A stretch of DNA of 64,000 nt, from NCBI GenBank assembly GCA_944387385.1, contig CALXES010000002.1, positions 42,136-106,135 on the forward strand, in the 5' to 3' direction. This document shows, piece after piece, positions 41,978 through 56,857 of the stretch. The position numbers and the translations under genes were made by a program. This DNA is from an uncultured Clostridia bacterium (GTDB taxonomy: Bacteria; Bacillota; Clostridia; TANB77; CAG-465). The stretch's first letter is position 1, and each line of letters starts with the position of its first letter. The notes below the pieces were generated by a model, which saw only the letters and a list, made by a program, of their open reading frames with translations, was not told the DNA's origin and made no database searches.

Positions 41978-42949
41978 CTATCTAGTTTTGCTTAAAGACA
42001 ATTCTCTATCAATTTCTGATTGTAGCTCATTAAGCTGTGAATTATATTCCTCTTTAAGTCCTTCATCCAATACAAGTTCATCAATATTTCTTCTTGCGGC
42101 TCTAATTCTATTAAAATATGCATATGGATTTGATAGTATTTCTTCATGTGTTCTACTTCTTTCTCTTTCAAGAGCTTCTATACTTCCTTCTACATCTAAA
42201 CCTTGTTCAGATTTTATACTAGTTGAAAATAGTAGTTCAGGCTCTCCAATCTTTTTGCCTCTACCATATATGTTTATACTATCACAAATTCCTCTTTGAG
42301 CAAATTCTCTTAATTCTCCAATAAATGGAGTATACATTCTATCATGGTCTGCTTTAGTTACCCTTCTTGGATCAAAACCATTTCTTATCAAATCAATGTC
42401 TCTTTCTATACAACACAAAAAACTCTCACTTCCATCAATTGCAATAATATTTATATCTATGTCATAACCGCCATCTTTAAATTGAGACAATTCTTTATAA
42501 TCTGCTTCTCCTCTGTGCATAACCTTTTCTTTTACAACATTTAATTTATTATCTATTACTGTTTTATGTACAATCTCATTACCAGGCTTAACAAATTTTC
42601 TTGTTGCTTTATAAAAATCATCAGGAGAAAGTTTTAATAAATCTTCATAGTGTCTATGAAAAGTAGCCAACTTATCTGCATCTAACTCTACGACACATTC
42701 ACCATTTTTACCATATTTTTCATCTCTAATATATTTTCTTAATGTTGTTTTTCCAGATCCAGCTTGTCCTACTAAATACGAAATTGTAGGATGTTGAGAA
42801 GAAAAATCCTTCATACACTTAGCATCCGGTTTTTGCTCTTTTGCCTCTATTAATAATTGAGTAAAGAAATTACTTATACCTTGTTTAAATTCTTCATCTG
42901 TTAAATCATATTTATCATAATTCATTTTTTCTACCATCCTTTTAATCAT
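41978..42949 (-). CDS. zeta-toxin-family P-loop kinase-like protein with C-terminal coiled-coil extension
   Basis: Walker A GQAGSGKTT about 60 aa from N-terminus as in zeta/PezT; 323 aa; start overlaps upstream 56-aa ORF (ATGATTAA). Confidence 0.55.
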   Translation of the reverse strand: MIKRMVEKMNYDKYDLTDEEFKQGISNFFTQLLIEAKEQKPDAKCMKDFSSQHPTISYLVGQAGSGKTTLRKYIRDEKYGKNGECVVELDADKLATFHRHYEDLLKLSPDDFYKATRKFVKPGNEIVHKTVIDNKLNVVKEKVMHRGEADYKELSQFKDGGYDIDINIIAIDGSESFLCCIERDIDLIRNGFDPRRVTKADHDRMYTPFIGELREFAQRGICDSINIYGRGKKIGEPELLFSTSIKSEQGLDVEGSIEALERERSRTHEEILSNPYAYFNRIRAARRNIDELVLDEGLKEEYNSQLNELQSEIDRELSLSKTR

Positions 42950-43122: not shown

Positions 43123-43659
43123 CTATTTTATTATATACTCCCACCCAGGTTGCCACGCTTTAGTTTTTCTCCAATCATTTTTATTTGCATCTTCCCAAGA
43201 GATATTTTTAGTTAATACTTCAAAAGCAAGCTGTGGCGCTCTGTGTGCAACAATTCCAATTGTTTTACCTTCATAATTATTTTTTAAAAAAGTTATAAAA
43301 TCCTTTATTCTATTTTCAACATCTTTTAATGATTCACCATTTGGAAATGGATTATCAACATGTTCTTCGTATACAACTAAAGACTTATCTTCTCCATCCA
43401 AATCCCCGTAATTACATTCTCTTAGTCTTTTATCCTGTATATGTTCAACATTAGGAAAAGCTAAGTTTGCAGAATCAATAGCTCTTACCAAATCTGATGT
43501 GAATATAACGTCAAAATGAGTATCTTTTCTTAATCTTCCCAAATTAATAGCTCTTTCTCTTCCCAAATCTGTTAACTCAGCTTGCTTCCAACCACTACAT
43601 TTTCCAGAAGCATTATCAGTTGTTGTTCCATGAACAAAATAAATAACTTTTGTCTCCAT
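43123..43659 (-). CDS. histidine phosphatase family protein (phosphoglycerate-mutase-like), noncanonical VHG in place of RHG (start placed at METKVIYF)
   Basis: VIYFVHGTTTDN...GWKQAELTDLGRERA...DVIFTSDLVRAIDSA pattern of His_Phos_1; ORF-track N-extension overlaps the upstream gene. Confidence 0.6.
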   Translation of the reverse strand: METKVIYFVHGTTTDNASGKCSGWKQAELTDLGRERAINLGRLRKDTHFDVIFTSDLVRAIDSANLAFPNVEHIQDKRLRECNYGDLDGEDKSLVVYEEHVDNPFPNGESLKDVENRIKDFITFLKNNYEGKTIGIVAHRAPQLAFEVLTKNISWEDANKNDWRKTKAWQPGWEYIIK

Positions 43660-43678
43660 ACCTACATCATCCCTTCCT

Positions 43679-44890
43679 TTATATTTCTTTTTCATACGTT
43701 TTCTTAAATTTACGTTGAAATTCCATTCTCTTATCAAACTCTTCTTGCGAAATCTCCCCTTCTCCTCTATCAATTTTTACTAAAGGATAATCTGGAAAAT
43801 TCATTATACTTGCTCCTCCAATCTTTGTAAAAAGTCTAGGAGTAACATTTAAAAACACATCATTCTGTTTGTAATCTGCATTCGGATCAATATACTTATT
43901 TGAAAAAATTCCAACAGAATATGCAAGCCATCTTAGAGTAATAAATGTATCCCTTAGCTCAGGATTTTTACTAAGTTCTTGAAATCTCTCTGGTGTTATA
44001 GAATCAAGCCTTTTAGATAGAGAAATTAATGAAGCTTTTACATCATCCTTCATCTTAGACTTGTCTATATTTTGAGCTATAACGTCTTGTGGTAACAATA
44101 TATGTCTTGTTCCTTCAGGTGGCACAGTATTTTTCCCTGTAAAAGCCATTAATATTTCTGCATATTTTTGCTCTAACCTTAAATGCATAGTTTTTAAAAC
44201 TTTTGTAAAGTTTGGATCTTGTAAAAATTGCCATCCTTTTTTGATTCTATATATAGATGAATATTCAATGTCTTGATCTCCACAAGTTAAATTTACTGGT
44301 TCTAAGTATTCTCTTAATTCATCAGTATCTAACGTCTCTCTAATTAGCGCTTGATTATATTCAAACATAGGATCAACAACTGATCGATAATAATATGGAG
44401 ATACTTTATCTTTATCAATTTCAGTTATTTTATCCATTGTTTCTTCTTTCCATGAATTAAGATGCAAATGAAATGGTTTTTTAGACATTCCACTAGTTCT
44501 ATCAGTTGTAAATTCATCATAATTAAATACTAAATATGGATAAGCATTACTTAAACCAAATTGATCAATTGTATCTTGACTTGTTAAAAAATCAATATAA
44601 TTATAGCCCATTTGAAAAACATATCTTGCTGCGTCATCAGACAAAGATGTAATTGAGCTCTTACATACAGAATCTGTTGATTGTAACATCATTTCATAAT
44701 CTGAATGTGGCTTAAATTTAGGTGCAAGAGTTATATAATCTGTTGCATCTGCACTCTTTATCTTATGTTCGCTGATTATTCCATTAAAAGGGATTTTTTC
44801 ACATTTGTTTTTTAAGTAAAAAGGTGTTTTAAACATCTCTTTATCAATTCCTGGAATTTTTAAGTGATATACTTTATAATTTTTGTCCAT
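43679..44890 (-). CDS. hypothetical 403-aa protein, no recognizable family
   Basis: Open frame in operon; contains KPFHLHLNSW (H-phi-H-phi-N, HIT-like) but otherwise unassignable. Confidence 0.5.
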   Translation of the reverse strand: MDKNYKVYHLKIPGIDKEMFKTPFYLKNKCEKIPFNGIISEHKIKSADATDYITLAPKFKPHSDYEMMLQSTDSVCKSSITSLSDDAARYVFQMGYNYIDFLTSQDTIDQFGLSNAYPYLVFNYDEFTTDRTSGMSKKPFHLHLNSWKEETMDKITEIDKDKVSPYYYRSVVDPMFEYNQALIRETLDTDELREYLEPVNLTCGDQDIEYSSIYRIKKGWQFLQDPNFTKVLKTMHLRLEQKYAEILMAFTGKNTVPPEGTRHILLPQDVIAQNIDKSKMKDDVKASLISLSKRLDSITPERFQELSKNPELRDTFITLRWLAYSVGIFSNKYIDPNADYKQNDVFLNVTPRLFTKIGGASIMNFPDYPLVKIDRGEGEISQEEFDKRMEFQRKFKKTYEKEI

Positions 44891-44928: not shown

Positions 44929-47229
44929 TTAAGTTGTAATTGGTCTACATTGTATTAGATATAAAGTATCATTTTCACATGCCCACTCGACATCAACATC
45001 GCAATTATAATAGTCTTCTAATTTCTTTCCGATTTCACCTATTTTAGTTATATTATCTATTGGTATACCATCCTGATTTATTTGATCTGTTATCTCAAGT
45101 GTTTCCTGATCAACAAAAAATCTATCAGGTATTACTCTATTGTCTACAAGCTTTGATGCCACGCCCTTGCAACACTCTATTATTATACTATCTCTATTAT
45201 TAGTTACAGGATCTTTGGTAAACATTACACCAGCATAATCTGCATTAATCATTCTTTGTATTACTATTCCACCAAATAGATTATCTGAATCTTCATCCTG
45301 ATATTTTTCAAGCCCAAATCCTAATAAAGATTTCCAGCACTTCCTTATGCTTTTTATTAAAAAATCTGATGTAGAGCAAAATAGCTCTGTAACATATTGT
45401 CCTGCAAAAGATTTGTTTTCCTTGTCTTCATTAGATGAACTACTTCTTACAGCATATGTATTATTAGAAAAATCTAGTATGTCTTCAAATATAGATGACG
45501 GTATCTCAACTTTATCTATTATATCTAAAATTTCATCTTTATACTTATTTAAGTCAGTACCACATTTCATATATTCATCTAATTGATTTGATTCTTTTAA
45601 AATAGCTTTAAAGAACTTCTTACCTAAAAAGTATGCTTCTGGAATATTTAAGCCTTGTCTTTTCATTAAAGATAAATTATAAGCCTTGTTACCTACTTCG
45701 TTCATGTCTACATCCTCATCAAATAGGTAAATTCCTTCATATAATTTATTATTGATTTTTTGACTTTCCTTTTCTTCTAACAATCTAATCGTTCCATTAG
45801 TCGCATCCACTTCAATTAAATCACCATTTTTTAATATATTTGTTATTCCTTTAAAAGCAATTATACATGGTTTCTTTAGTTCTCTACTTATAACTGAAGC
45901 ATGACTTAATATTCCTCCCTCTTCTGTTACTATAGCTTTTGATTTTACAATTGCATTCATAAAATCAAAATCTGTTCCATAAGTTACTAGAATTTCTCCT
46001 TCTTTTAATTTATTGCTTTCTTCAAAAGTCAAACAAATTCTAGCTTTTCCTGTAACCTTACCAGAAGATGCACACACACCCTTTTTATTTTTAAGTACAC
46101 TTACATCATCTTCATTTATTTTTAAATTATTATAGTATTCTTCTCTTGACTCCATTCCACTATAAATTAGTGATACATTTGATATATATACTCCTTCTTT
46201 TCTTTTTTCCACTTCTTCCTTATCTAACTTCTCATTTAATACCAACAAATTATAAAAATCGTCCATTATATAAAATTTAAAGTCTTGATTTAATTCTGGA
46301 AATCTATTTTTTATTTCATCAAGTATTGTATTTCTATACCTAACGCTTTTTCCTAATAGTGCTTTTTTTCTATCTCTCATAATTCCAAGTTTTGCTGCAA
46401 GATCAAATAACTCAGATAATTGAGAATTATTTAATTTTTTATAAACAGATTGTTTTTGAGTAACTATTCTATTAGGATAAGTTTCTATTTCGTCTATTTT
46501 ACTTTTTATTTCATCCTTACTTAAGTTTTTAAGCTTATTATAACGCTCAACAACTACACTCCTTGAAAGTGGTTTACTTCCGTAACCAATAGTTATATAA
46601 TCATATTCTTTTAAGTGATCATCAATTAACTTATCTATATCAAGAGATTCTGCATTATATAAGGCTTTAAGAAAAGCTAATTCTTCTTTTATAACTGCTG
46701 TATTATCTTCTAAAGAATATAATGTAGTTACCTCATCAGCATTAATATATTGTAAAGGATTTAAATCATTTATTGCCTTTTGTAATCCCAGTTCAACTGG
46801 AGCTAGATTTATATAGTATATTTGATTTAAAGTTATTTGATACCAATTAAATAATATTTCATATAACTCAGCATTACTTAATTTATTTAAGTCGTTTTTT
46901 TGAAGTTTTTCTAAAAAATCATCTAATAGTGTTTCTCTTCTGTTATAATACCAATAACACTTTTCTATAATATTGGGATTGCTATACTTTTGTGGATTTT
47001 TAAATTGATTAGATATATTAAATAATGCGTTTTCCCAGTCTTTTTGTGGAGTATATGACCACAATTTATTATCTTGATAATAAAGACACACATTTTTAAA
47101 CCTAAACCAGTTTATATCAGAACTATACTGATCATATAAGTCATAAATAAATTGCACCGATAACATGGTATCGACATTTCTGTAGTTAATTTGTTTCCAA
47201 TTTTTAATTTTATTTGTACATAAATACAT
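44929..47229 (-). CDS. PEP-utilizing-enzyme-family phosphotransferase with reversed domain order (unknown N-domain, phosphohistidine swivel domain, C-terminal PPDK_N-like nucleotide-binding domain)
   Basis: Swivel-domain motif GGILSHASVISRELKKPCI (res about 420-440); C-terminal third resembles the PEP synthase N-terminal ATP-binding domain; RBS AGGAGG. Confidence 0.65.
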   Translation of the reverse strand: MYLCTNKIKNWKQINYRNVDTMLSVQFIYDLYDQYSSDINWFRFKNVCLYYQDNKLWSYTPQKDWENALFNISNQFKNPQKYSNPNIIEKCYWYYNRRETLLDDFLEKLQKNDLNKLSNAELYEILFNWYQITLNQIYYINLAPVELGLQKAINDLNPLQYINADEVTTLYSLEDNTAVIKEELAFLKALYNAESLDIDKLIDDHLKEYDYITIGYGSKPLSRSVVVERYNKLKNLSKDEIKSKIDEIETYPNRIVTQKQSVYKKLNNSQLSELFDLAAKLGIMRDRKKALLGKSVRYRNTILDEIKNRFPELNQDFKFYIMDDFYNLLVLNEKLDKEEVEKRKEGVYISNVSLIYSGMESREEYYNNLKINEDDVSVLKNKKGVCASSGKVTGKARICLTFEESNKLKEGEILVTYGTDFDFMNAIVKSKAIVTEEGGILSHASVISRELKKPCIIAFKGITNILKNGDLIEVDATNGTIRLLEEKESQKINNKLYEGIYLFDEDVDMNEVGNKAYNLSLMKRQGLNIPEAYFLGKKFFKAILKESNQLDEYMKCGTDLNKYKDEILDIIDKVEIPSSIFEDILDFSNNTYAVRSSSSNEDKENKSFAGQYVTELFCSTSDFLIKSIRKCWKSLLGFGLEKYQDEDSDNLFGGIVIQRMINADYAGVMFTKDPVTNNRDSIIIECCKGVASKLVDNRVIPDRFFVDQETLEITDQINQDGIPIDNITKIGEIGKKLEDYYNCDVDVEWACENDTLYLIQCRPITT

Positions 47230-47245
47230 TAATATTTCCTCCTCT

Positions 47246-47986
47246 CTAATTAATATATACTTGCTTTATGTATTCAATAAACTTATTATAGTTTTCATCT
47301 TTATCCCTTGGATGTTTTAGGGGATTTTTTACCTTTTTATATAAGTTATTTTTACCCATCAAATGAATATAATCTCCTAATTTAGCAGCCTCTTCTATAT
47401 AATGTGTAGATAATATAGAAGTAAATTTTTCTGTTGCAAATTCATCTAGAAAAATTTTATGGATGTTTTCTTTTGAAATAAAATCCAAAGCACAAAAAGG
47501 CTCATCAAGTAATATTATTTTAGGATTAATTACTATACTTTTAGCCAAGGCAACCTTTTGCTTTAAACCAACAGACAATTCATGAGGATAAAAATTTCTA
47601 ATATCATATAAATCATATCTTATTAAAATTTCTTTTAATTCCTTATCATTAATATCTTTTTTAATACTATCAAGAGCAAATTTAATGTTTTGTTTTACAC
47701 TTAGCCATGGTAATAAATTATTTTCCTGTAATACCATTGTAAGTGGTATATTACTACTTTTAATGTATGTGTCATCAAAAACTATATTACCGCTATCATA
47801 TTCTTCTATTCCCGCTATCACTTTTAAAAGAGAACTCTTTCCACATCCGGACACACCTAATAAACAATGAACTTTTCCTCTTTCAAATTTTATATCAAAA
47901 TCATTAAATACTTTCTTATAATTTTTATTACCAATTTTATAATTTTTTACTAGATTTTCTACTTTTATTGCATATTCTTCTTTCAT
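47246..47986 (-). CDS. ABC transporter ATP-binding protein (NitT/TauT family)
   Basis: Walker A GVSGCGKSS, signature LSVGLKQK, Walker B ILLDEP. Confidence 0.85.
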   Translation of the reverse strand: MKEEYAIKVENLVKNYKIGNKNYKKVFNDFDIKFERGKVHCLLGVSGCGKSSLLKVIAGIEEYDSGNIVFDDTYIKSSNIPLTMVLQENNLLPWLSVKQNIKFALDSIKKDINDKELKEILIRYDLYDIRNFYPHELSVGLKQKVALAKSIVINPKIILLDEPFCALDFISKENIHKIFLDEFATEKFTSILSTHYIEEAAKLGDYIHLMGKNNLYKKVKNPLKHPRDKDENYNKFIEYIKQVYIN

Positions 47987-47992
47987 ATAGAT

Positions 47993-48634
47993 TTAAGCTC
48001 TCCTTACCCAAAACAGAACTTTTTTAGATATTTTCTCTATTATAAATGAAATTAAAGCTCCTAGTAATCCCATAAATAATATTCCTATAAAAACCTCTTC
48101 ATAATTTAATAAAGTATAAGCTTTCCATGTATAGTATCCTAATCCTTCTTTTCCACTGATCATTTCTGCCATAATTACACTTGCCCAAGAACCACTTATT
48201 CCAAGCATTAATGATGTAAATATACCTGGCATTATTGCTGGAAGTAATATTTTAAAAAATCTATCTTTAAAATTTAACTTATATAACCTAGAAATTATCA
48301 AATAATCTTGTGGAATACTTAAAAACGATCTATATATATTTAAAAACATTGGAAAAAAAGCACCAATAAAAGTTATACACAAAATGCTTGTATCTATCGT
48401 ATTGCACAGTATAATTGTAATTGGCACCCATCCTGCATTTGGGATAGGTCGTAGTAACTCTAAAATTGGATATAATATCTTTCTTAAAGGCTTAAATTCA
48501 TAAATAATTAAAGCTAGTACTAAAGATGAAAAAAATGCTAAACTAAAACCAATTAAAACATTCTTTAGAGATATTAAAATATTAATATATAAATCGTAAC
48601 TTGTTATTTCATTTATAAACACTCTCAAATCCAT
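47993..48634 (-). CDS. ABC transporter permease (NitT/TauT family)
   Basis: 213 aa, five or six TM helices, 6 nt from ATPase gene. Confidence 0.75.
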   Translation of the reverse strand: MDLRVFINEITSYDLYINILISLKNVLIGFSLAFFSSLVLALIIYEFKPLRKILYPILELLRPIPNAGWVPITIILCNTIDTSILCITFIGAFFPMFLNIYRSFLSIPQDYLIISRLYKLNFKDRFFKILLPAIMPGIFTSLMLGISGSWASVIMAEMISGKEGLGYYTWKAYTLLNYEEVFIGILFMGLLGALISFIIEKISKKVLFWVRRA

Positions 48635-48656
48635 TTTGTTACCTTCTTTTTATTAA

Positions 48657-49649
48657 CTAATTATATATATACTTTTCAATATCAAACTCTTTAATTTGCT
48701 CTAAAGATACTAAAAAATTCAACTTATCATTTAAGGCTTCAATATCTTCTTCATTTATATTTGAATTCCATTCAATAGCATTAATTTCGTCAAATACTAC
48801 ATCATATGAGAATCCACTTTCTTTTTCCATGATTTTTGCTGCTTCTTCTTTATTATTAATAATAAAATCATGAGCTTCTTTTAATGACTCAATAAAAGCT
48901 TGTACTAACTTTTCATCTTTTTCTTTTAAATTATTATTTATAATAACACCTGCCAAATAATCTACTTGTGATTCTTCTCCATCTACAATAACTCTTGTAT
49001 CTATCTCTTTTTGCAAATATTTAGGATATGGCTCCCATATTGCAAAAGCATCTGTTTTATTAGTACTTAATAATTGTATTGCCATTGAAACATCTTGATG
49101 TACAATTTCAACATCATTTAATAGATTATATTTTTCAAGTATTTTCATTAGCATATAATGAGCACTTGAGCCTATAGGTACTGAGACTGTTTTCCCTTTT
49201 AAATCATAAACACTATTTATATTACTATCTTTTGATGCTATAATACTTTGATTTTTTCCATTTTTTCCCGTTCCATCTAAAGCAATCAAGCTAGCATCAT
49301 ATTCACTTAGACTATCCGCTTTATACATATTCAATAACAAAGGCATATCTCCCATAAAACCAATATCTATTTTATTAGAAATCATACTAGTATTAATAAT
49401 AGACCCAGAAATTTCGTCATGCCAAACTATCCTAACTTTCTTATCTGGATATAGTTCTTGCACTTTTTTCTCATAAATTTCTAGGTCTTTTATTATTAGT
49501 GCTCCCCAAGTCTGGGATGTCACACTTTGATATCCTATATTAATTTCAAGCGTATTTTTCCTATTAACTGCAATAACCGCAATAAGGGCTATAAATAAAA
49601 TAGCTGTTAATATAAATATACCTTTTTTACTAAATATCATTTTATTCAT
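48657..49649 (-). CDS. ABC transporter substrate-binding protein, NMT1/THI5-SsuA/TauA family
   Basis: N-terminal anchor helix, then periplasmic-binding fold typical of sulfonate/nitrate/pyrimidine-precursor binders. Confidence 0.75.
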   Translation of the reverse strand: MNKMIFSKKGIFILTAILFIALIAVIAVNRKNTLEINIGYQSVTSQTWGALIIKDLEIYEKKVQELYPDKKVRIVWHDEISGSIINTSMISNKIDIGFMGDMPLLLNMYKADSLSEYDASLIALDGTGKNGKNQSIIASKDSNINSVYDLKGKTVSVPIGSSAHYMLMKILEKYNLLNDVEIVHQDVSMAIQLLSTNKTDAFAIWEPYPKYLQKEIDTRVIVDGEESQVDYLAGVIINNNLKEKDEKLVQAFIESLKEAHDFIINNKEEAAKIMEKESGFSYDVVFDEINAIEWNSNINEEDIEALNDKLNFLVSLEQIKEFDIEKYIYN

Positions 49650-49849: not shown

Positions 49850-49878
49850 TTGAAACTTTTTTTAGTTTGTAGTATCAT
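49850..49878 (+). promoter_or_regulatory. candidate sigma-A promoter for the thyX-like operon (TTGAAA-17-TATCAT)
   Basis: TTGAAA 49850-49855, 17-nt spacer, TATCAT 49873-49878; about 30 nt upstream of RBS GGAGG. Confidence 0.4.
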
Positions 49879-49909
49879 ATTAATAGAGTTTTTTTGGAGG
49901 TATGATAAT

Positions 49910-50566
49910 ATGATTAAGGTAGAAAATTTAGAAGTTCTAAATTTTGAAGGTGCATTAAGAGGTATGCGAAATCCTTTAGAATCATGGGACAAAAGTGATA
50001 GTTATTATGATAAAGACACAGGAAAATATATAATAGGACCAAAAGATTTAGCACTTGCTTTAAAATTAACAAAAGCAGGTTCTGATCATTCTAAATTTTT
50101 AAGGCAAATATTCGTATCAATGGATATTACAGCTCCAATGTCATGGTGGTGGGATTTTGATACATATAAAGTTGCTACAGTAAGAAATAGTACAAGTAGG
50201 ATGCACAAGCTTGGAAGTAGAATATTAACATTTGATGATTTTAGTGTTGATGACGAAAAAGGAAATACAAATATAACACCATTTAGAAAATACGTTTTAG
50301 AAGATTTAAACAGAAGAATCAAAGAATATCAGCAATTAAAAAATGATGGCAAAATGGAAGAAGCAATGGCGCTATGGAGAGAAATTGTTTTTGATTCTCC
50401 TCAAAGTTATAATTTTAAATCAACATGGACTGGTAATTATGAAATAATGAGAAATGTTTATAGAGCAAGAAGAAATCATAAACAAAGAGAATTTAGAGAT
50501 TTCTGTAAAATTATAGAAAATGAATTTCCATATAGCGAATTAATAACAACCCCAAGAGAAGGATAG
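49910..50566 (+). CDS. ThyX-fold (flavin-dependent thymidylate synthase-like) protein lacking the RHR/dUMP-binding arginines (start placed at ATG 49910; ORF-track start is an upstream TTG)
   Basis: Aligns with Thermotoga ThyX in core segments (HSKFLRQIFVSMDITAPMSWWW; WTGNYEIMRNVYRAR) from memory, but RHR is replaced by TYK and the NAR arginine by NYE. Confidence 0.5.
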   Translation: MIKVENLEVLNFEGALRGMRNPLESWDKSDSYYDKDTGKYIIGPKDLALALKLTKAGSDHSKFLRQIFVSMDITAPMSWWWDFDTYKVATVRNSTSRMHKLGSRILTFDDFSVDDEKGNTNITPFRKYVLEDLNRRIKEYQQLKNDGKMEEAMALWREIVFDSPQSYNFKSTWTGNYEIMRNVYRARRNHKQREFRDFCKIIENEFPYSELITTPREG

Positions 50567-50576
50567 GTGAGAAAAT

Positions 50577-51152
50577 ATGGCAAATTCAAAACTAATAGTT
50601 GTTGAGGGGCCACAAGGAGTCGGAAAAACAACTGTAACTGATTATATTAGACATGGTCTAAAATATACTAATTTATATAGATTATGTGGTACATCTGATA
50701 GTACACCAACGGGAAAAAAGAAAGCAACTGATATGTACTGGGACTTAATTGAATATATAAAAAAAATGGAAAACAAAAGTATAAACTTGGTTTTTGATAG
50801 AACATTTTTTACTGAAGAAATATATAGTAGACTAAAATTTAAAGAATATGATTTTTCTGATGAATATGAAAAGCTACTTGATAACTTTAGCAAATTAGAT
50901 TTTGATATATACTATATAACACTTTTTTTAGAGAATACAGAGCTATTTAAAAAAAGATTAGTAAGAGATGATAAAGCTATTACTGAATATGCTAAATTTA
51001 ATATAGAAAGTAGTAAAAAACAACAAAAAGAATATTTAAAGATGGCAGATGAAATTTCATCAAAATATCCAAATATAAAAGTATTCAAAGTGTCTAATGA
51101 TACCGATGAACAAGAGTTAAAATTAAAAATAAAAAACATACTTAACTTTTAA
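50577..51152 (+). CDS. P-loop (d)NMP/deoxynucleoside kinase-like protein (thymidylate-kinase fold)
   Basis: IVVEGPQGVGKTT P-loop at N-terminus, FDRTFF (DRY-like) motif, LVRDDK lid-like segment; 191 aa. Confidence 0.55.
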   Translation: MANSKLIVVEGPQGVGKTTVTDYIRHGLKYTNLYRLCGTSDSTPTGKKKATDMYWDLIEYIKKMENKSINLVFDRTFFTEEIYSRLKFKEYDFSDEYEKLLDNFSKLDFDIYYITLFLENTELFKKRLVRDDKAITEYAKFNIESSKKQQKEYLKMADEISSKYPNIKVFKVSNDTDEQELKLKIKNILNF

Positions 51153-51187
51153 TATCATACCATCTTAGTATTACATGGAGGTTAAAT

Positions 51188-52468
51188 ATGACAAACGAAG
51201 AAATAATATCATATATTTATAAAGAAAGAAAAAGTAATAAAGAAAAAAAAGATAATAGCAGAATGTTAAGTTTTATGAACGAACTTAATAATCCACAAAA
51301 CAATTTAAAATTTATACATATAGCTGGTACAAATGGCAAAGGTTCAACTACTACAATGCTTGCAAATGTATTAAAAAACAGTGGTTATAAAGTTGGAAAG
51401 TTTATTTCTCCGTACGTAATTTCTTTTAACGAAAGAATACAAATAAACAATGAATTTATATCAGATGATGAATTATCAAAATATATTAAACAAATAGACC
51501 CTATTATTTTAAAAATGGAGCAAAATGGAGATGCACCAAACGGTTTTGAAATAATAACTGCAATTGCTTTTATGTACTTTAATGATAAAAAATGTGACTT
51601 TGTATGTTTAGAAACTGGTTTAGGAGGAAGATTAGACCCAACTAACGTAATAACTACAACAATAATGTCTATAATAACACTTATAGATTATGATCACACA
51701 AAATTTTTAGGAAATACTTTAGAGGAAATAGCTTCTGAAAAATGTGGAATTATAAAAAAAGGAAAGGTAACTGTTACTTATCCTAAACAAAAGAAAAATG
51801 TTTTAGATACAATTAGAAGCTTTTGCTTAAAAGAAAATAATAAACTATATATTCCAAGTTTAAAACTATTAGATATTATAAAATGTAATCATAACATTAA
51901 CTATTTTAGTTATAAAGGAACATATTACAAACTTAACCTTATAGGAAAACATCAAATATATAATGCTTTAATGGTAATTTTAGCATCTAATATTATGATT
52001 AATCTTGGGTATAAAATATCCTTTTCCGCAATAAACAGTGGAATATCAGATACAAGTTTTCCAGCAAGATTAGAAAAATTTGATAATAATCCTACTATCT
52101 ATATAGATGGCTCTCATAATGTTGCTGGAGCTGAAGCACTTAAAGATTTTTTATACGAATACAAAGGAAAGAAAAACTATGCTATAATGTCTTTTACAGA
52201 AGGAAAAGATTATTCAAAATTTATTGAAGAAATAGGTTCATATTTTCAAGAACTAATATTTGTTGAATACAAAAATAAATATAAAAAAGCGGAAAATATA
52301 AAAAATCTAGAGAAAGTAGCATCAAAATTAGGTATAAAATCTAAATCATTTGATTCAATTACCAAAGCATATGAATATGTGAAAAGTCAAGAAAATTCTG
52401 ATTTATTGTTGGTCACAGGTTCATTATATCTTGCATCTGATTTTAGAAATATGTTAACAGAAGAATAG
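51188..52468 (+). CDS. folC: folylpolyglutamate synthase/dihydrofolate synthase (Mur ligase family)
   Basis: HIAGTNGKGST P-loop, 426 aa. Confidence 0.9.
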   Translation: MTNEEIISYIYKERKSNKEKKDNSRMLSFMNELNNPQNNLKFIHIAGTNGKGSTTTMLANVLKNSGYKVGKFISPYVISFNERIQINNEFISDDELSKYIKQIDPIILKMEQNGDAPNGFEIITAIAFMYFNDKKCDFVCLETGLGGRLDPTNVITTTIMSIITLIDYDHTKFLGNTLEEIASEKCGIIKKGKVTVTYPKQKKNVLDTIRSFCLKENNKLYIPSLKLLDIIKCNHNINYFSYKGTYYKLNLIGKHQIYNALMVILASNIMINLGYKISFSAINSGISDTSFPARLEKFDNNPTIYIDGSHNVAGAEALKDFLYEYKGKKNYAIMSFTEGKDYSKFIEEIGSYFQELIFVEYKNKYKKAENIKNLEKVASKLGIKSKSFDSITKAYEYVKSQENSDLLLVTGSLYLASDFRNMLTEE

Positions 52469-54081: not shown

Positions 54082-55791
54082 TTAGTATCCTAATAATTTT
54101 AAAATAGCTAGTCCTACCTTTTCACCTTTTCCTTCATATGGCCACTCATTTATTGAATATCCCGGATCATCATTTATCTCTATGATTGAATAATCATTTT
54201 TATTTAAATCGTCTATTATTAAGTCAACACCACATACTTTTGCATTAAATGCATTAGCTGCCTTTTCAGACATCTCTTTAAAATATTGTGGTATATCATT
54301 TGTAACATCAAGGCTTTCTCCTCCTGTAGAACAATTTGAGTTTGTTCTCAAAAATACTCTTTCATCTTTTTGTGGTATAGTATCATATGTATAATTAGAT
54401 TTTTTTAAAAATTCTTCAACTGGTTTTTCAATTTTTACAGGAGTTCCAGTAAGAGCATGCCAAGGCTCTTTATTTTTTATATCTATAAGTTCTTTTATTG
54501 TAGATTTTCCATCACCTACAACACTTGCAACTCTTCTATGAGCAACGCTTATACATTTTCCATCTACAACTAAAAATCTATACTCTTTACCTTTTATATA
54601 CTGTTCAACCAACACATCCGAATCAAATTCAAAAGCATATTTTATTGCATTATTTATTTGATCTTTAGTTCCAGGTTTACTAAACACTGTTATACCAGTT
54701 CCCATGTTTGTGTTTCTTGGTTTAATTACTAGCGGCATACTATATAGATCTTTTATTAAATCTTCTATTTCTTCTTGTTCCATATCTTTAGTAAGTAAAA
54801 TAGCATCTGGAACACTTAGCCCCTTTTCTTTCATTATATTTTTTGATACTAATTTATCATCTGTCACTATTGGAAATATATATGAGTCTCTATCTGTTCT
54901 ATTTCCTTCAATTATATATTCTTTATGTCCTTCGTAATCCAACAAAGCAAAACTTGTTGTCTCATTTAGAATTTTATAGTCGATACCTTGTGATAAAGCA
55001 TCTTTAATCAATATAGCTGCTTCTGCTAATAACTTAGGATGATATTTTAATCTATATCTCTCATTATATCCTTCTAACATGTTATTTTTTAAAATGTCTA
55101 ATAGTTCTTTTTTAGTTAACCCTTTTAATTTATTTTCATTTCTATTTAATTGAGTGTTTTCTATAAAATCTTTACATCTTAAAGAGAATATCCTATTTAA
55201 ATCTCTTAAATCTACTTTATTACTCAAGCATGAGAATATTTCCAATATAATATACATTATTTCTTTTAGTTCTATCCCAACTCTATCCATTGGATTTAAT
55301 GTAATATTATTTATTGTTATATTATTATTATATTCAATTTTTATATCACCAAAAATCTCTTTAAAGTGACTAATTCTTTTATTAAGTTTATTAACTATGT
55401 TTTTATACATGTCCTCAATATTATCAGGTAAGATTATATTATTTTTTTCAGCTATTTCATATATCTTAGAATTTAGTGAAAATTCAATTGTTAAAAAACA
55501 TTTTTCTTCATTATCAAAACAAGGACTACTTGAATTCCACAACAGTTCATTTCTTTCAAATAATTCTAAAATAACAATATCTGTAATTTCTTGTAACTTT
55601 ATATAACATTCATGTAAATCTTCACAAATTGGTGTATTTATTAATAATTTCTTATCATTATCTGAAAATGTTATTAATTTATTTTTTAATCTATCACCAA
55701 AAGCTACTGGATGCTCTAGCCTAGATAAATTTCCATTACTATCACACCTTAAACTTTCTTTTTTTATTTTAATATTATAAATATTATTCAT
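54082..55791 (-). CDS. ATP-grasp ligase with uncharacterized 300-aa N-terminal domain (glutathione-synthetase/cyanophycin-synthetase-like C-terminal half)
   Basis: C-terminal half has ATP-grasp hallmarks: PLVIKP, EQYIKGKEYRFLVVDGK, NCSTGGESLDVT, IEINDDPG. Confidence 0.65.
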   Translation of the reverse strand: MNNIYNIKIKKESLRCDSNGNLSRLEHPVAFGDRLKNKLITFSDNDKKLLINTPICEDLHECYIKLQEITDIVILELFERNELLWNSSSPCFDNEEKCFLTIEFSLNSKIYEIAEKNNIILPDNIEDMYKNIVNKLNKRISHFKEIFGDIKIEYNNNITINNITLNPMDRVGIELKEIMYIILEIFSCLSNKVDLRDLNRIFSLRCKDFIENTQLNRNENKLKGLTKKELLDILKNNMLEGYNERYRLKYHPKLLAEAAILIKDALSQGIDYKILNETTSFALLDYEGHKEYIIEGNRTDRDSYIFPIVTDDKLVSKNIMKEKGLSVPDAILLTKDMEQEEIEDLIKDLYSMPLVIKPRNTNMGTGITVFSKPGTKDQINNAIKYAFEFDSDVLVEQYIKGKEYRFLVVDGKCISVAHRRVASVVGDGKSTIKELIDIKNKEPWHALTGTPVKIEKPVEEFLKKSNYTYDTIPQKDERVFLRTNSNCSTGGESLDVTNDIPQYFKEMSEKAANAFNAKVCGVDLIIDDLNKNDYSIIEINDDPGYSINEWPYEGKGEKVGLAILKLLGY

Positions 55792-55810: not shown

Positions 55811-56800
55811 TTAAACTATAACTAACTCTTCTTCTAAAGATGTTAATACTGGTTCTCTATTATTACCATCAGCCACATTTCCAACAATCAACTCAACATT
55901 TAGTGCATTTATTGGCTTTATTTTATGATATATTATTTTCTCATTTTTTTTATAAGTTATATACTCTCTCTTTTGATGTGTATTATTAATAATTACATTT
56001 TTTAAGTCAAAAAAAAGAGCCTTACTATTACAATTGATATATGAAAATTGAGTTTTAGAATTATTAATTTTCTTATTACCATTCAAGTCAACTTCTACTA
56101 CAAAAGTTGGCGCTTCTGTCATTTCATTTGATCTATTAAGTATCTCATAATATCCATCAATATAAAGTTGAATATTTAATCCTTCACTTTGTAAATCTTT
56201 AACAGCTTTTGATATTGCAATAAGGCTATTTTTGTTTCTACAATCAATCTTACAAATCAACCTTACCTTTTCATGTAAATTAATATCATACGCACCTTTA
56301 ATACTTGACTTGAACAAAATCTTTCCTATATTAGGAATTCTTTTTTCATAATCATTGTTTAATTTAGTTAAGATCCCAGTTATTGTTAAAATATTTTCTT
56401 TTTTTGTAGGAAAATATGGATTTTGTAAAAGTGTATTGTTTTTTTCATACTTTATGGTTGTTACTCCAATAATTTCGTTAATACCATTATGATTTCTAGA
56501 AGCTAATATTACAGGATAATTTGCAATATTATAAATCATTTCATTTAAATTTGGTATTTGTATAAAATCCCTATTTCCAATAAAATTTTTATCATAAAAA
56601 TATATCACTTTAAAAAGCATATCATTTAATGCTTGTTTACCAGTTATAGTCTGAAAAAGATAAAATCTAATATCTGATTCATCTGGATTCTTTTTAATAA
56701 ATTCTTTAGTTTGCACCTCCATTTCCTTATTAAAACAATTAAATATAGTTTGTTTAAAAATTTCGTTGCGCCTTCGCGGCTTTTCTTTTTCCTTTTCCAT
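55811..56800 (-). CDS. hypothetical protein co-transcribed upstream of the ATP-grasp ligase (start placed at MEKEKEKPRRR, RBS GGAGAC)
   Basis: Open frame 19 nt upstream of ligase gene; no family recognized. Confidence 0.45.
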   Translation of the reverse strand: MEKEKEKPRRRNEIFKQTIFNCFNKEMEVQTKEFIKKNPDESDIRFYLFQTITGKQALNDMLFKVIYFYDKNFIGNRDFIQIPNLNEMIYNIANYPVILASRNHNGINEIIGVTTIKYEKNNTLLQNPYFPTKKENILTITGILTKLNNDYEKRIPNIGKILFKSSIKGAYDINLHEKVRLICKIDCRNKNSLIAISKAVKDLQSEGLNIQLYIDGYYEILNRSNEMTEAPTFVVEVDLNGNKKINNSKTQFSYINCNSKALFFDLKNVIINNTHQKREYITYKKNEKIIYHKIKPINALNVELIVGNVADGNNREPVLTSLEEELVIV

Positions 56801-56833
56801 AAAAAGTCTCCATTTCTGTCGCACTGCGACTAA

Positions 56834-56857
56834 CATAATATACTACAGTATATTATG
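56834..56857. promoter_or_regulatory. candidate operator: inverted repeat CATAATATACT-AC-AGTATATTATG at the 5' end of the ATP-grasp operon
   Basis: 11-bp perfect arms, 2-nt spacer; lies 34 nt upstream of the preferred start and next to a GTCGCACTGCGAC 5'-UTR hairpin (56818-56830). Confidence 0.35.

Follow-up and report, generated by a model that had tools for sequence, protein, structure and literature searches.

The window (the whole 64,000-nucleotide stretch of DNA that was analysed) encodes on its minus strand a 766-residue protein that belongs to the PEP-utilizing superfamily by its PPDK_N-type ATP-grasp and its swivel phosphohistidine domain, from which catalysis is predicted. By homology, it is probably an ATP-dependent small-molecule dikinase in a single chain, from the branch that holds rifampin phosphotransferase (RPH) and HpeHI; the pathway in which it may act is graded separately below. 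A well-populated, unstudied prokaryotic branch uses the same three modules (substrate domain, swivel, ATP-grasp) in an order like that of glucan, water dikinase (GWD). The new element is the recurrent context of importer, dikinase, and a 403-residue orphan partner (unk403), and not the domain order.

Swivelling-histidine dikinases, a textbook case of large-scale domain movement, are known chiefly from central metabolism (PPDK and PEP synthase, PEPS), from the phosphorylation of starch (GWD), from resistance to antibiotics (RPH), and from the breakdown of aromatics (HpeHI and PpsAB). A wider "small-molecule dikinase" family that includes RPH was reportedly described by Stogios et al. in 2016.

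Domain organization of the dikinase

The open reading frame (ORF) and its parts were mapped as follows.

44929..47229 (-), dikinase ORF, 766 aa plus stop with ATG start; substrate domain, then swivel His domain, then ATP-grasp
46090..47229 (-), N-terminal acceptor-substrate domain, mostly helical (aa 1-380), without a Pfam model; putative divergent RPH/HpeH-type homolog
46363..46377 (-), codons of R285-D286-R-K-K289, an R-[D/E]-x-x-K motif; counterpart of RPH-Lm Arg666-Glu667-x-x-Lys670 and predicted second phosphotransfer site
45760..46089 (-), swivel phosphohistidine domain (aa 381-490) with T435-E-E-G-G-I-L-S-H443; Pfam PF00391 (PEP-utilizers) at residues 409-479, E 2.5e-19
45901..45903 (-), codon of His443, predicted catalytic phosphocarrier, aligned with the RPH catalytic His in GGxxxH
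45733..45759 (-), flexible linker between swivel and ATP-grasp (aa 491-499); AF2 pLDDT <50 at 489-493
44932..45732 (-), C-terminal ATP-grasp nucleotide-binding domain (aa 500-766); Pfam PF01326 (PPDK_N) at residues 510-766, E 3e-45

The first-pass annotation had placed this ORF at the same position, and the stretches that it quoted (GGILSHASVISRELKK, GNKAYNL, VRSSSSNEDKENKSFAGQY, and DVEWA) are all present in the translation. Its central claim, a His domain ahead of PPDK_N, was borne out. In a PDB sequence search, residues 506-766 aligned with RPH-Lm 15-315, which is the whole RPH ATP-grasp, and both stop at RPITT, the ATP-grasp motif that forms the dikinase C-terminus; by Pfam and by this alignment the ATP-grasp is genuine and complete. 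The possibility raised beforehand, that the C-terminal third is PEP_utilizers_C, does not apply, as no match to this TIM barrel (PF02896) was found in the dikinase with Pfam at E ≤ 0.1. The ATP-grasp, a shortened form of ~262 aa, carries GNK, VRSSS..ED, SFAGQ, DVEW, and QCRPIT motifs. The ATP-grasp motifs are invariant, and the domain was also aligned to both I subunits and grasps of conventional order.

Residues 384-484 were aligned with the RPH swivel (767-866) in the same search, and the PEPS central domain was aligned as well. The catalytic motif of the swivel phosphohistidine domain is defined as T/S-x-x-G-G-x-x-x-H (PMC12167813). In alignment A1, E436-A444 is invariant except for the nearly invariant I440, T435 is nearly invariant, and His443 is invariant across 30 sequences.

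The AF2 model of the dikinase has a mean pLDDT of 87.5, and a second soft linker at ~351-380 (pLDDT 68-70) means that the swivel is flanked by two. Its best structural matches by Foldseek were RPH (5hv1, 5fbs, 5fbt, 5fbu) and HpeI (9goj), with the ATP-grasp matching 5hv1 and 5hv6 at E 1e-16 to 1e-15.

A conventional PEP synthase or PPDK, or a chimeric ORF produced by misassembly or frameshift, was given a nearly negligible probability. NCBIfam PEP synthase models do match at E 1e-57 to 1e-61, but the matches are confined to grasp and swivel and fall far below the cutoffs (PEP_synth 194 vs 739.75; pyru_phos_dikin 52 vs 843), and the PEP_utilizers_C barrel is missing. A chimera is further opposed by the full-length architecture, which recurs across independent assemblies in ~70 close homologs and in dozens of more distant ones. 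PEPS and PPDK have a homologous ATP-grasp and a homologous swivel that likewise lies centrally between substrate domains; however, their flanking domains are opposite in order, and their acceptor domain is the TIM barrel whereas that of the dikinase is helical and, by prediction, of RPH type.

The N-terminal substrate domain and its phosphotransfer motif

The N-terminal region of ~390 aa had been left unassigned and proposed as a novel substrate domain. It does form a domain of its own (residues 1-380), but novelty was not upheld, since it appears to be a divergent homolog of the RPH-type central substrate domain. An N-domain HMM matched the central domain of two RPH-like proteins of conventional order (P0112 and P0113) at E 6e-7 to 8e-9. 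With Foldseek, N-domain plus swivel aligned with the RIF-binding domain plus swivel of RPH (5fbt, 5fbu) over 573-579 columns, with a poor global TM of 0.28-0.31 for the N-domain fold alignment to RPH. The N-domain-only profile had no significant sequence match among PDB chains, RPH included, so the case for a RIF-binding-domain homolog is built from the intermediates, the fold alignment, and one motif.

That motif, R285-D286-x-x-K289, is invariant in alignments A1 and A3 and lies 158 residues ahead of the catalytic His (R285 to H443), compared with 159 in RPH (R666 to H825). The query region 285-484 aligned to positions 665-864 of the NCBIfam Rph profile. Asp286 stands where RPH has Glu667, and the two conventional-order intermediates carry Q instead of R at the first position of the motif. 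In RPH, Arg666Ala and Glu667Ala substitutions abolish transfer (PMC4844700). The N-domain family comprises 1566 clusters at E ≤ 1e-3, and its invariant residues are N15, R17, Y32, N40, R43, N141, E146, Y216, G217, R285, D286, K289, A290, and R343. Because profile, Foldseek, and the R-E/D-x-x-K spacing all point to RPH, the N-domain is taken as no novel kind of substrate domain.

The dikinase shares with RPH-Lm (5FBS/5FBT/5FBU, 5HV1) the ATP-grasp (26% identity, Foldseek E 1e-16), a helical substrate domain with R-E/D-x-x-K, a GGxxxH swivel, and, by analogy, the predicted reaction ATP + X-OH -> AMP + Pi + X-P via phospho-His. The two differ in order (grasp, substrate, and C-terminal swivel in RPH; substrate, swivel, and grasp here), so that the dikinase swivel is tethered on both sides. 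The dikinase ATP-grasp is also ~50 aa shorter, sequence similarity of the substrate domains is detectable only over the last ~100 residues, and the gene context is different.

RPH being the closest solved structure, and the NCBIfam models RIF_Ptrans_rph and Rph being partially matched, the gene could be thought to encode an antibiotic-inactivating phosphotransferase, that is, resistance to rifamycin or another drug. This is very improbable. Both scores are far under their equivalog cutoffs (181.5 vs 999 and 125.9 vs 1700, respectively), the matches take in ~100 aa of the substrate domain but otherwise nothing beyond grasp and swivel, and the operon, in which a dedicated importer and partners of biosynthetic type accompany the gene, is conserved in bacteria and archaea. 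The RPH authors saw no RIF resistance from distant clades (PMC4844700).

Domain order in known dikinases

As the first-pass annotation had it, the order is rotated relative to PEPS, PPDK, and RPH. Its description as a new architecture has to be withdrawn, since GWD has the same order, two-component H/I dikinases have been characterised (PMC12167813), and the fused order is abundant in public data. In potato glucan, water dikinase (StGWD1), a central helical domain (483-926) is followed by the His domain (931-1050) and a C-terminal ATP-binding domain (1069-1387) (PMC13553574). The same sequence of helical acceptor-side, His, and ATP-binding domains occurs in GWD1 and phosphoglucan, water dikinase (PWD) of plants and algae, and an order with His before PPDK_N is functional because GWD has it.

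The shared order of helical central, His, and C-terminal ATP-binding domains (PMC13553574) would suit a polymer or glycan dikinase like GWD or PWD that acts on a cell-surface or storage polysaccharide instead of an imported small molecule. The GWD ATP domain has also been reported as RPH-like, and GT2 or GT4 glycosyltransferase genes adjoin the dikinase at loci L013 and L014. This reading was nevertheless judged improbable. GWD, a starch-acting enzyme of ~1400 aa, carries a pair of CBM45 modules, whereas the prokaryotic dikinase, with its 766 aa, is linked to the import of small molecules and has no CBM45, CBM20, or other carbohydrate-binding module by Pfam. Homology between the GWD central domain (9HA9/9QVI) and the N-domain was not detected when the N-domain profile was searched against PDB chains, among which GWD entries are possibly absent. 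The RPH-type R-D-x-x-K is conserved, and tight linkage to an ABC importer together with sugar-1-phosphate nucleotidylyltransferase-like partners points to a soluble small substrate.

The two-component family offers a further parallel. An H-type substrate domain is a homolog of the RPH RIF-binding domain placed directly before the swivel (PMC12167813), and the N-domain plus swivel of the dikinase fits this description. In HpeHI, CreHI, and PpsAB (phenylphosphate synthase), H (substrate domain and swivel) is followed by I (ATP-grasp), which is the order of the dikinase, but H and I are separate polypeptides there and one polypeptide in the window. With H and I modules in the same order, HpeI (9goj) among the structural matches, and the two-component family characterised (PMC12167813), the dikinase might be a catabolic phenol or aromatic kinase of this type that is merely fused. 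Little probability was assigned to this. The N-domain falls in an unnamed clade distinct from these enzymes, and NCBIfam PRK08296 models (~600 aa, C-terminal swivel) match the swivel only and not the N-domain. No carboxylase or aromatic-catabolism genes are present in the operon; the partners are an importer, a HIT-like orphan, a phosphatase, nucleotidylyltransferases, and glycosyltransferases, and the hosts of the dikinase loci are low-GC uncultured Bacilli/Mollicutes-type MAGs.

MarK was considered as a single-chain precedent and ruled out, its fold being unrelated.

Distribution of fused and split forms

The survey of homologs for domain order that had been proposed gave the same layout in ~70 full-length homologs (763-769 aa, 51-84% identical). 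An identical protein with this layout was also found, relatives at 28-42% identity keep the rotated layout, and six MAG loci carry the dikinase in conserved synteny; because these all agree, the domain order is no artefact of assembly or gene calling. The fused rotated order was found in 36 of the 150 best N-domain clusters, among them a protein that NCBI has annotated in the cultured Anaerocolumna aminovalerica. No characterised protein with this fused order was found in public data, and the literature searched describes neither the gene cluster nor any prokaryotic dikinase arranged in this way.

Split forms occur among close relatives, archaea included, with H of ~485 aa and I of 247-263 aa (loci L008 and L010-L012). 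In Halocatena, the genes are split into H (487 aa), HisPhos (182 aa), and I (263 aa), while L010-L012 hold a set of NTP_transferase, an H::HisPhos fusion, and I (247 aa). In P0085, His_Phos_1 is fused to the H subunit. In a neighbor-joining tree of N-domain plus swivel, the fused forms make up no fewer than 3-4 deep clades and are paraphyletic with respect to a single split clade, a topology that fits fusion as well as fission. The rotated fused order could be ancestral in the clade with split H/I derived. A specific relationship of the C-terminal ATP-grasp to standalone I subunits would speak for a fusion; in HMM comparisons, I subunits scored 126-153 bits and N-terminal grasps of conventional order 145-190, and neither these scores nor indel patterns discriminate. 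Fused and split forms among close relatives are a natural test set for the effect of linker topology on the swivel mechanism.

Gene neighbourhood

The genes adjoining the dikinase in the window are listed below.

47246..49649 (-), whole ABC importer directly upstream of the dikinase (Pfam)
48657-49649 (-), SsuA/NMT1-type substrate-binding protein (SBP) by Pfam; SsuA_fam 129 bits, below the 163.5 cutoff
47993-48634 (-), ABC permease (Pfam)
47246-47986 (-), ABC ATPase (Pfam)
43679..44890 (-), unk403, 403 aa orphan partner; possible HIT/GalT-like fold, conserved F-H141-x-H143-L
43123..43659 (-), phosphatase or mutase of the His_Phos_1 type, 178 aa with METKVIY taken as the start; PF00300 E 4.8e-27

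An unk403-family gene adjoins the dikinase in L001-L006 and L013-L015, and an ABC importer is co-located with it in L002-L004, L006, L009, and L013-L015; in L001 and L005, unk403 adjoins the dikinase with no ABC match. The SBP of the window is 45% identical to that of L009. L009, L010, and P0098 have an NTP_transferase as either a neighbour or a fusion partner, and the place of unk403 is filled, in split systems, by a gene like those for sugar-1-phosphate nucleotidylyltransferases. An amino-acid-ligase-like gene is present in L015, and carrier-protein and carbamoyltransferase genes in L014. As accessory genes differ between loci such as these, the dikinase loci may serve more than one pathway. 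NCBIfam names for the SBP, the phosphatase, a Zeta-like kinase, and the NTP_transferases were all below cutoffs, and none points to a substrate. No RNA element or riboswitch naming the pathway was found in the window with Rfam at the gathering threshold, and PADLOC models gave no match to the dikinase, unk403, or the phosphatase that would indicate a defence-system role.

No unk403 family was found in Pfam (21 aligned members scanned), NCBIfam, or a PDB sequence search. The AF2 model of unk403 (pLDDT 88, pTM 0.89) had GalT-like and HIT proteins as its best Foldseek matches (1z84, 6k5z, 1hxq; E 1.5e-3 to 4e-3, probability 0.92-0.96, TM ~0.3), which weakly suggests a HIT/GalT-like fold. The GalT branch of the HIT superfamily is marked by a tandem HIT fold with an H-x-H-x-Q/N nucleotidyl-His motif; in unk403, F-H141-x-H143-L is kept across distant members, and N145 is not invariant.

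Most of the systems include a His_Phos_1 phosphatase, and the gene downstream of the dikinase is conserved in L001-L004 and L006. In the window protein, VHG replaces the canonical RHG (the Arg is absent), and the split systems have another His_Phos_1 subfamily, linked or fused, to which the window phosphatase is not orthologous. His_Phos_1 is the most persistent partner of the split systems and is joined to H in P0085, and the swivel is homologous to that of PTS Enzyme I; one could therefore imagine a phosphorelay or regulatory enzyme that passes phospho-His to a protein partner as Enzyme I does, with His_Phos_1 as a SixA-like reset phosphatase. Against such a role, to which an exceedingly low probability was attached, stand the invariance of R-D-x-x-K and of many polar N-domain residues, the lack of an HPr-like partner, and an importer and nucleotidylyltransferase context that suits metabolite processing.

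Proposed mechanism and pathway

For a small-molecule dikinase, the mechanism expected by homology would begin with ATP bound by the C-terminal ATP-grasp. The central swivel is tethered on both sides, and its His443 would attack the beta-phosphate, releasing AMP and forming a pyrophosphoryl-His whose gamma-phosphate would be lost to water. The swivel would then swing over to the N-terminal domain, where R285, D286, and K289 may position the phospho-His for transfer of phosphate to the hydroxyl of a bound small molecule.

From the conserved gene context, the acceptor would be supplied by the adjacent SsuA/NMT1-type ABC importer, and the phosphorylated product would be nucleotidylylated by unk403 here and by the sugar-1-phosphate nucleotidylyltransferase-like enzyme in split systems. 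His_Phos_1 would be an accessory phosphatase or mutase, and the NDP-activated compound would then be used by neighbouring glycosyltransferases. We give this pathway slightly less than an even chance; binding proteins of the SsuA type do not typically bind sugars, which counts against it.

More doubtful, and offered only tentatively, is the broader proposal that dikinase, unk403, and the SsuA/NMT1-type importer constitute an unrecognised salvage or activation pathway, with NTP_transferase and His_Phos_1 as interchangeable partners, in low-GC Bacillota/Mollicutes-like gut lineages, Patescibacteria, and archaea. If this is true, an imported metabolite would be phosphorylated by a swivelling-His dikinase and not by a conventional kinase, and then NDP-activated by a new HIT-like nucleotidyltransferase, and unk403 would count as a new family of enzymes. 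Tight linkage to an importer, to unk403, and to genes for nucleotidylyltransferases and glycosyltransferases suggests a route of metabolite activation yet to be discovered, in hosts (uncultured gut Bacilli/Mollicutes-type MAGs, Patescibacteria, archaea) whose metabolism is poorly understood. For such genes, the automatic labels "phosphoenolpyruvate synthase" and "PEP/pyruvate-binding" are misleading.

Domain order of the dikinase

The window is low in G+C (about 25-30%) and carries most of its genes on the minus strand, including an ATG-initiated ORF of 766 aa (44929..47229, -) for which the coordinates and all motifs quoted in the first-pass annotation were found to be exact. A Pfam scan placed a PEP-utilizers mobile domain at residues 409-479 (E 2.5e-19) and a PPDK_N AMP/ATP-binding domain at residues 510-766 (E 3e-45). 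When searched against PDB sequences, residues 384-484 aligned to the C-terminal swivel domain of rifampin phosphotransferase (RPH; 767-866) and residues 506-766 to the entire RPH ATP-grasp (15-315), with the RPITT motif as the common end of the latter alignment. The phosphohistidine domain therefore precedes a complete ATP-grasp, as first proposed. A TIM barrel at the C-terminus would have made the order conventional; no PEP_utilizers_C domain was found in the Pfam scan, and the C-terminal third is ATP-grasp. The same two Pfam domains were present in an identical protein and in about 70 homologs (763-769 aa, 51-84% identical), and the best genome matches, all MAGs of uncultured Clostridia, Bacilli and Mollicutes, conserved the synteny; an artefactual ORF was ruled out on these grounds.

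All three modules, the N-terminal domain (N-domain), swivel and ATP-grasp, are present with intact motifs: R285/D286/K289 at the acceptor site, TEEGGILSH443 in the swivel, and GNK, VRSS..ED, SFAGQ, DVEW and QCRPIT in the ATP-grasp. Across 30 aligned sequences, E436-A444 (including H443) was invariant except for I440, which like T435 was nearly invariant.

Fold and homology of the N-domain

The N-domain has no Pfam model, and its profile alone gave no significant sequence match in the PDB. An AlphaFold2 model of the whole protein, built from an alignment of 30 sequences, was confident (mean pLDDT 87.5, with softer segments at about 351-380 and 489-493) and comprised a largely helical domain (residues 1-350), a small alpha/beta swivel flanked on both sides by flexible linkers, and a two-lobed alpha/beta C-terminal domain. 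Using Foldseek, which aligns in sequence order, the ATP-grasp matched RPH 5hv1 (E 1.6e-16, 320 columns), and the N-domain plus swivel matched the RIF-binding domain plus swivel of RPH 5fbu and 5fbt (573-579 columns); HpeI (9goj) was also among the matches. Two separate RPH alignments of the model are the pattern that a permutation should produce.

Sequence comparison extended the similarity upstream of the swivel. A family profile aligned dikinase residues 315-487 to RPH, reaching about 100 residues ahead of the swivel, and positions 665-864 of the NCBIfam Rph model aligned to residues 285-484. In RPH of Listeria (RPH-Lm), Arg666 and Glu667 are needed for the second phosphotransfer, which Ala substitutions abolish; with Lys670, they surround the phosphate in a network of hydrogen bonds, and even the RPH clades that are most distant keep the motif (PMC4844700). 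The dikinase and its fused bacterial and split archaeal relatives share an invariant R285-D286-x-x-K289, which sits 158 residues ahead of H443; the RPH-Lm motif lies 159 residues ahead of the catalytic His825. This putative catalytic motif is the strongest single point for an RPH-type N-domain.

An HMM of residues 1-380 also matched the central domain of two homologs of conventional order, P0112 and P0113 (i-E 6e-7 and 8e-9), in which an ATP-grasp (5-314) comes first and the swivel lies at the extreme C-terminus; in both, Q replaces the first Arg of the R-D-x-x-K motif. We conclude that the N-domain is a predicted, divergent RPH/HpeH-type acceptor-substrate domain. These central-domain matches, the Foldseek alignments and the R-D-x-x-K motif thus argue against the novel substrate domain of the first-pass annotation.

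Distribution of the domain order

The proposal of a new architecture did not hold. A characterised precedent, potato glucan, water dikinase (GWD), consists of two CBM45 modules, a helical central domain (483-926), a His domain (931-1050) and a C-terminal ATP-binding domain (1069-1387), an arrangement that its authors distinguish from those of PPDK and RPH (PMC13553574) and that has the same linear order as the dikinase. In the characterised two-component systems HpeHI, CreHI and PpsAB, H carries the substrate domain and swivel and I the ATP-grasp, with RPH as the fused equivalent (PMC12167813); the dikinase is H then I on one chain, whereas theirs are separate. Literature searches returned no description of a prokaryotic enzyme with the substrate-swivel-grasp order.

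Nor is the order rare. The N-domain profile was searched against 1.84 billion representative proteins and matched 1566 clusters at E<=1e-3 (85 at E<=1e-30).

Architectures among the top 150 of the 1566 N-domain clusters
N-domain + swivel (split form): 64
N-domain + swivel + grasp (dikinase order): 36
Fragments, N-domain only: 35
Tandem (N-domain + swivel) arrays, x2 or x3: 10
Other arrangements, one each: 5

The dikinase order was still present in homologs at 28-42% identity, and an Anaerocolumna aminovalerica protein that carries it is labelled "PEP/pyruvate-binding domain-containing protein" by NCBI. Among split forms, Halocatena salina has consecutive genes for H (487 aa), His_Phos_1 (182 aa) and PPDK_N (263 aa); another lineage combines an NTP_transferase gene with one for an H::His_Phos_1 fusion (671 aa) and one for PPDK_N (247 aa). 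A crude NJ tree placed fused forms in several deep clades, paraphyletic to one split clade. Comparison of the C-terminal grasp with I subunits versus conventional grasps showed no demonstrably closer kinship to I subunits.

Tandem (N-domain + swivel) repeats (x2 or x3) occurred among P0094, P0267, P0271, P0265, P0296 and P0283 of the representative library, and in one 2309-aa protein three such units precede an ATP-grasp and a fourth follows it. Such multi-swivel dikinases appear to be undescribed. In five proteins of 1000-1165 aa from Patescibacteria and metagenomes (P0080, P0083, P0086, P0089, P0105), two separate swivels come after a conventional PPDK_N at the N-terminus, and some of the five also contain a UDP-GlcNAc 2-epimerase-like segment. 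In P0071 (693 aa), an N-domain and swivel 61% identical to those of the dikinase are joined directly to an ABC_tran ATPase instead of an ATP-grasp. The rearrangement may be real, or it may stem from a frameshift or a chimeric gene call.

Predicted mechanism and classification

By homology, the dikinase is predicted to work like RPH and HpeHI. As in RPH, PPDK and GWD, the C-terminal grasp would bind ATP, His443 would attack the beta-phosphate with release of AMP, and the gamma-phosphate would be hydrolysed; the swivel would then relocate to the N-domain and pass its phosphate to a hydroxyl group on the acceptor bound there. Because it is placed between two substrate domains, the swivel is doubly tethered, as in PPDK, PEP synthase (PEPS) and GWD and unlike in RPH.

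Since it lacks the TIM barrel of PEP synthase and PPDK, the dikinase is neither of these, and it failed the curated cutoffs of all named NCBIfam equivalogs. It is best filed with the small-molecule dikinases, in a widespread, uncharacterised clade whose domain order is rotated, and its architectural novelty is modest. The conserved module of importer, dikinase and orphan enzyme is the more interesting lead.

Gene cluster and likely role

The dikinase is the fourth gene of a co-directional cluster:
48657-49649, minus: SsuA/NMT1-type binding protein (SBP) with N-terminal membrane anchor
47993-48634, minus: permease
47246-47986, minus: ABC ATPase
44929-47229, minus: dikinase
43679-44890, minus: orphan protein of 403 aa (unk403)
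43123-43659, minus: His_Phos_1 protein, likely start METKVIY (43659)
41978-42949, minus: Zeta-toxin-like P-loop kinase
then the S10 ribosomal operon

No riboswitch was found in the window, and the dikinase, unk403 and the phosphatase gave no defence-system signature. Four MAG loci share the set of importer, dikinase, unk403 and phosphatase. An NMT1-type ABC importer also adjoins divergent fused dikinases (30-42% identical; loci L013-L015), and the ~400-aa genes beside them are unk403 homologs (E 1e-172, 7e-80 and 1.5e-58) in which a DR-SGMS-K-FH-x-H-L core is conserved; two of these loci also have neighbouring GT2 or GT4 glycosyltransferases. The SBP of an archaeal-looking locus (L009) and the window SBP share 45% identity.

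No match to unk403 was found in Pfam, NCBIfam or PDB sequences. Its structural model was confident (pLDDT 88, pTM 0.89), and the best matches, although weak (E 1.5e-3, probability 0.92-0.96, TM about 0.3), were HIT proteins, among them GalT-like nucleotidyltransferases. Both H141 and H143 are invariant. In split systems an NTP_transferase + LbH protein, most like sugar-1-phosphate nucleotidylyltransferases with scores below cutoffs, takes the place of unk403, and P0098 is a dikinase of substrate-swivel-grasp order that carries a C-terminally fused NTP_transferase domain. From these neighbour patterns we propose, at slightly less than even odds, that nucleotidylylation of the dikinase product yields an NDP-activated compound.

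The window His_Phos_1 protein has VHG in place of the canonical RHG and is about 20% identical to the split-system phosphatases, which read RHF at the catalytic motif; recruitment of His_Phos_1 proteins has thus occurred repeatedly, from different subfamilies. The protein may serve as a mutase, remove a second phosphate or reset the phospho-enzyme. The mechanical ORF (43123-43773, -) has a TTG start that overlaps the end of unk403.

In the closest relative, locus L001, the importer is missing at the dikinase site, which is directly adjoined by a trio of genes that in the window is divergently transcribed (49850-52468, +): a 238-aa ORF without Pfam match, a 191-aa P-loop protein that weakly matches thymidylate kinase and a 426-aa FolC/Mur-ligase-like protein. 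The window and L001 therefore differ by an insertion or deletion of the importer block. The Zeta_toxin/PezT-like kinase between the phosphatase and the S10 operon (323 aa; Pfam E 1.3e-25; NCBIfam PezT 48 bits versus a cutoff of 470) is conserved in L001 only and may be either a member of the dikinase pathway or a toxin.

Elsewhere in the window, a 569-aa protein (54082-55791, -) combining an N-terminal Glu_cys_ligase piece with RimK/D-Ala-D-Ala-ligase-type ATP-grasp domains resembles the bifunctional glutathione synthetase GshF/GshAB, which is longer. The neighbouring 341-aa ORF (55811-56836) has no Pfam match.

Accessory genes beside the dikinase/unk403 pair vary by lineage. Between unk403 and the phosphatase, the more distant MAG loci (L002, 13527-14219; also L003, L004 and L006) carry an extra 230-aa gene with a CHFC...C cysteine motif; this gene is absent from the window and L001. 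L015 (9172-12968) encodes a tRNA-synt_2c-like protein, an L-amino-acid-ligase-like ATP-grasp and an MFS transporter; L014 (11896-16301) encodes GT2, a PP-binding carrier protein, a hydrolase and a carbamoyltransferase, and a gene for an AMP-binding enzyme lies farther upstream (1-932). This variation in L014 and L015 suggests secondary-metabolite-like elaborations of the core module.
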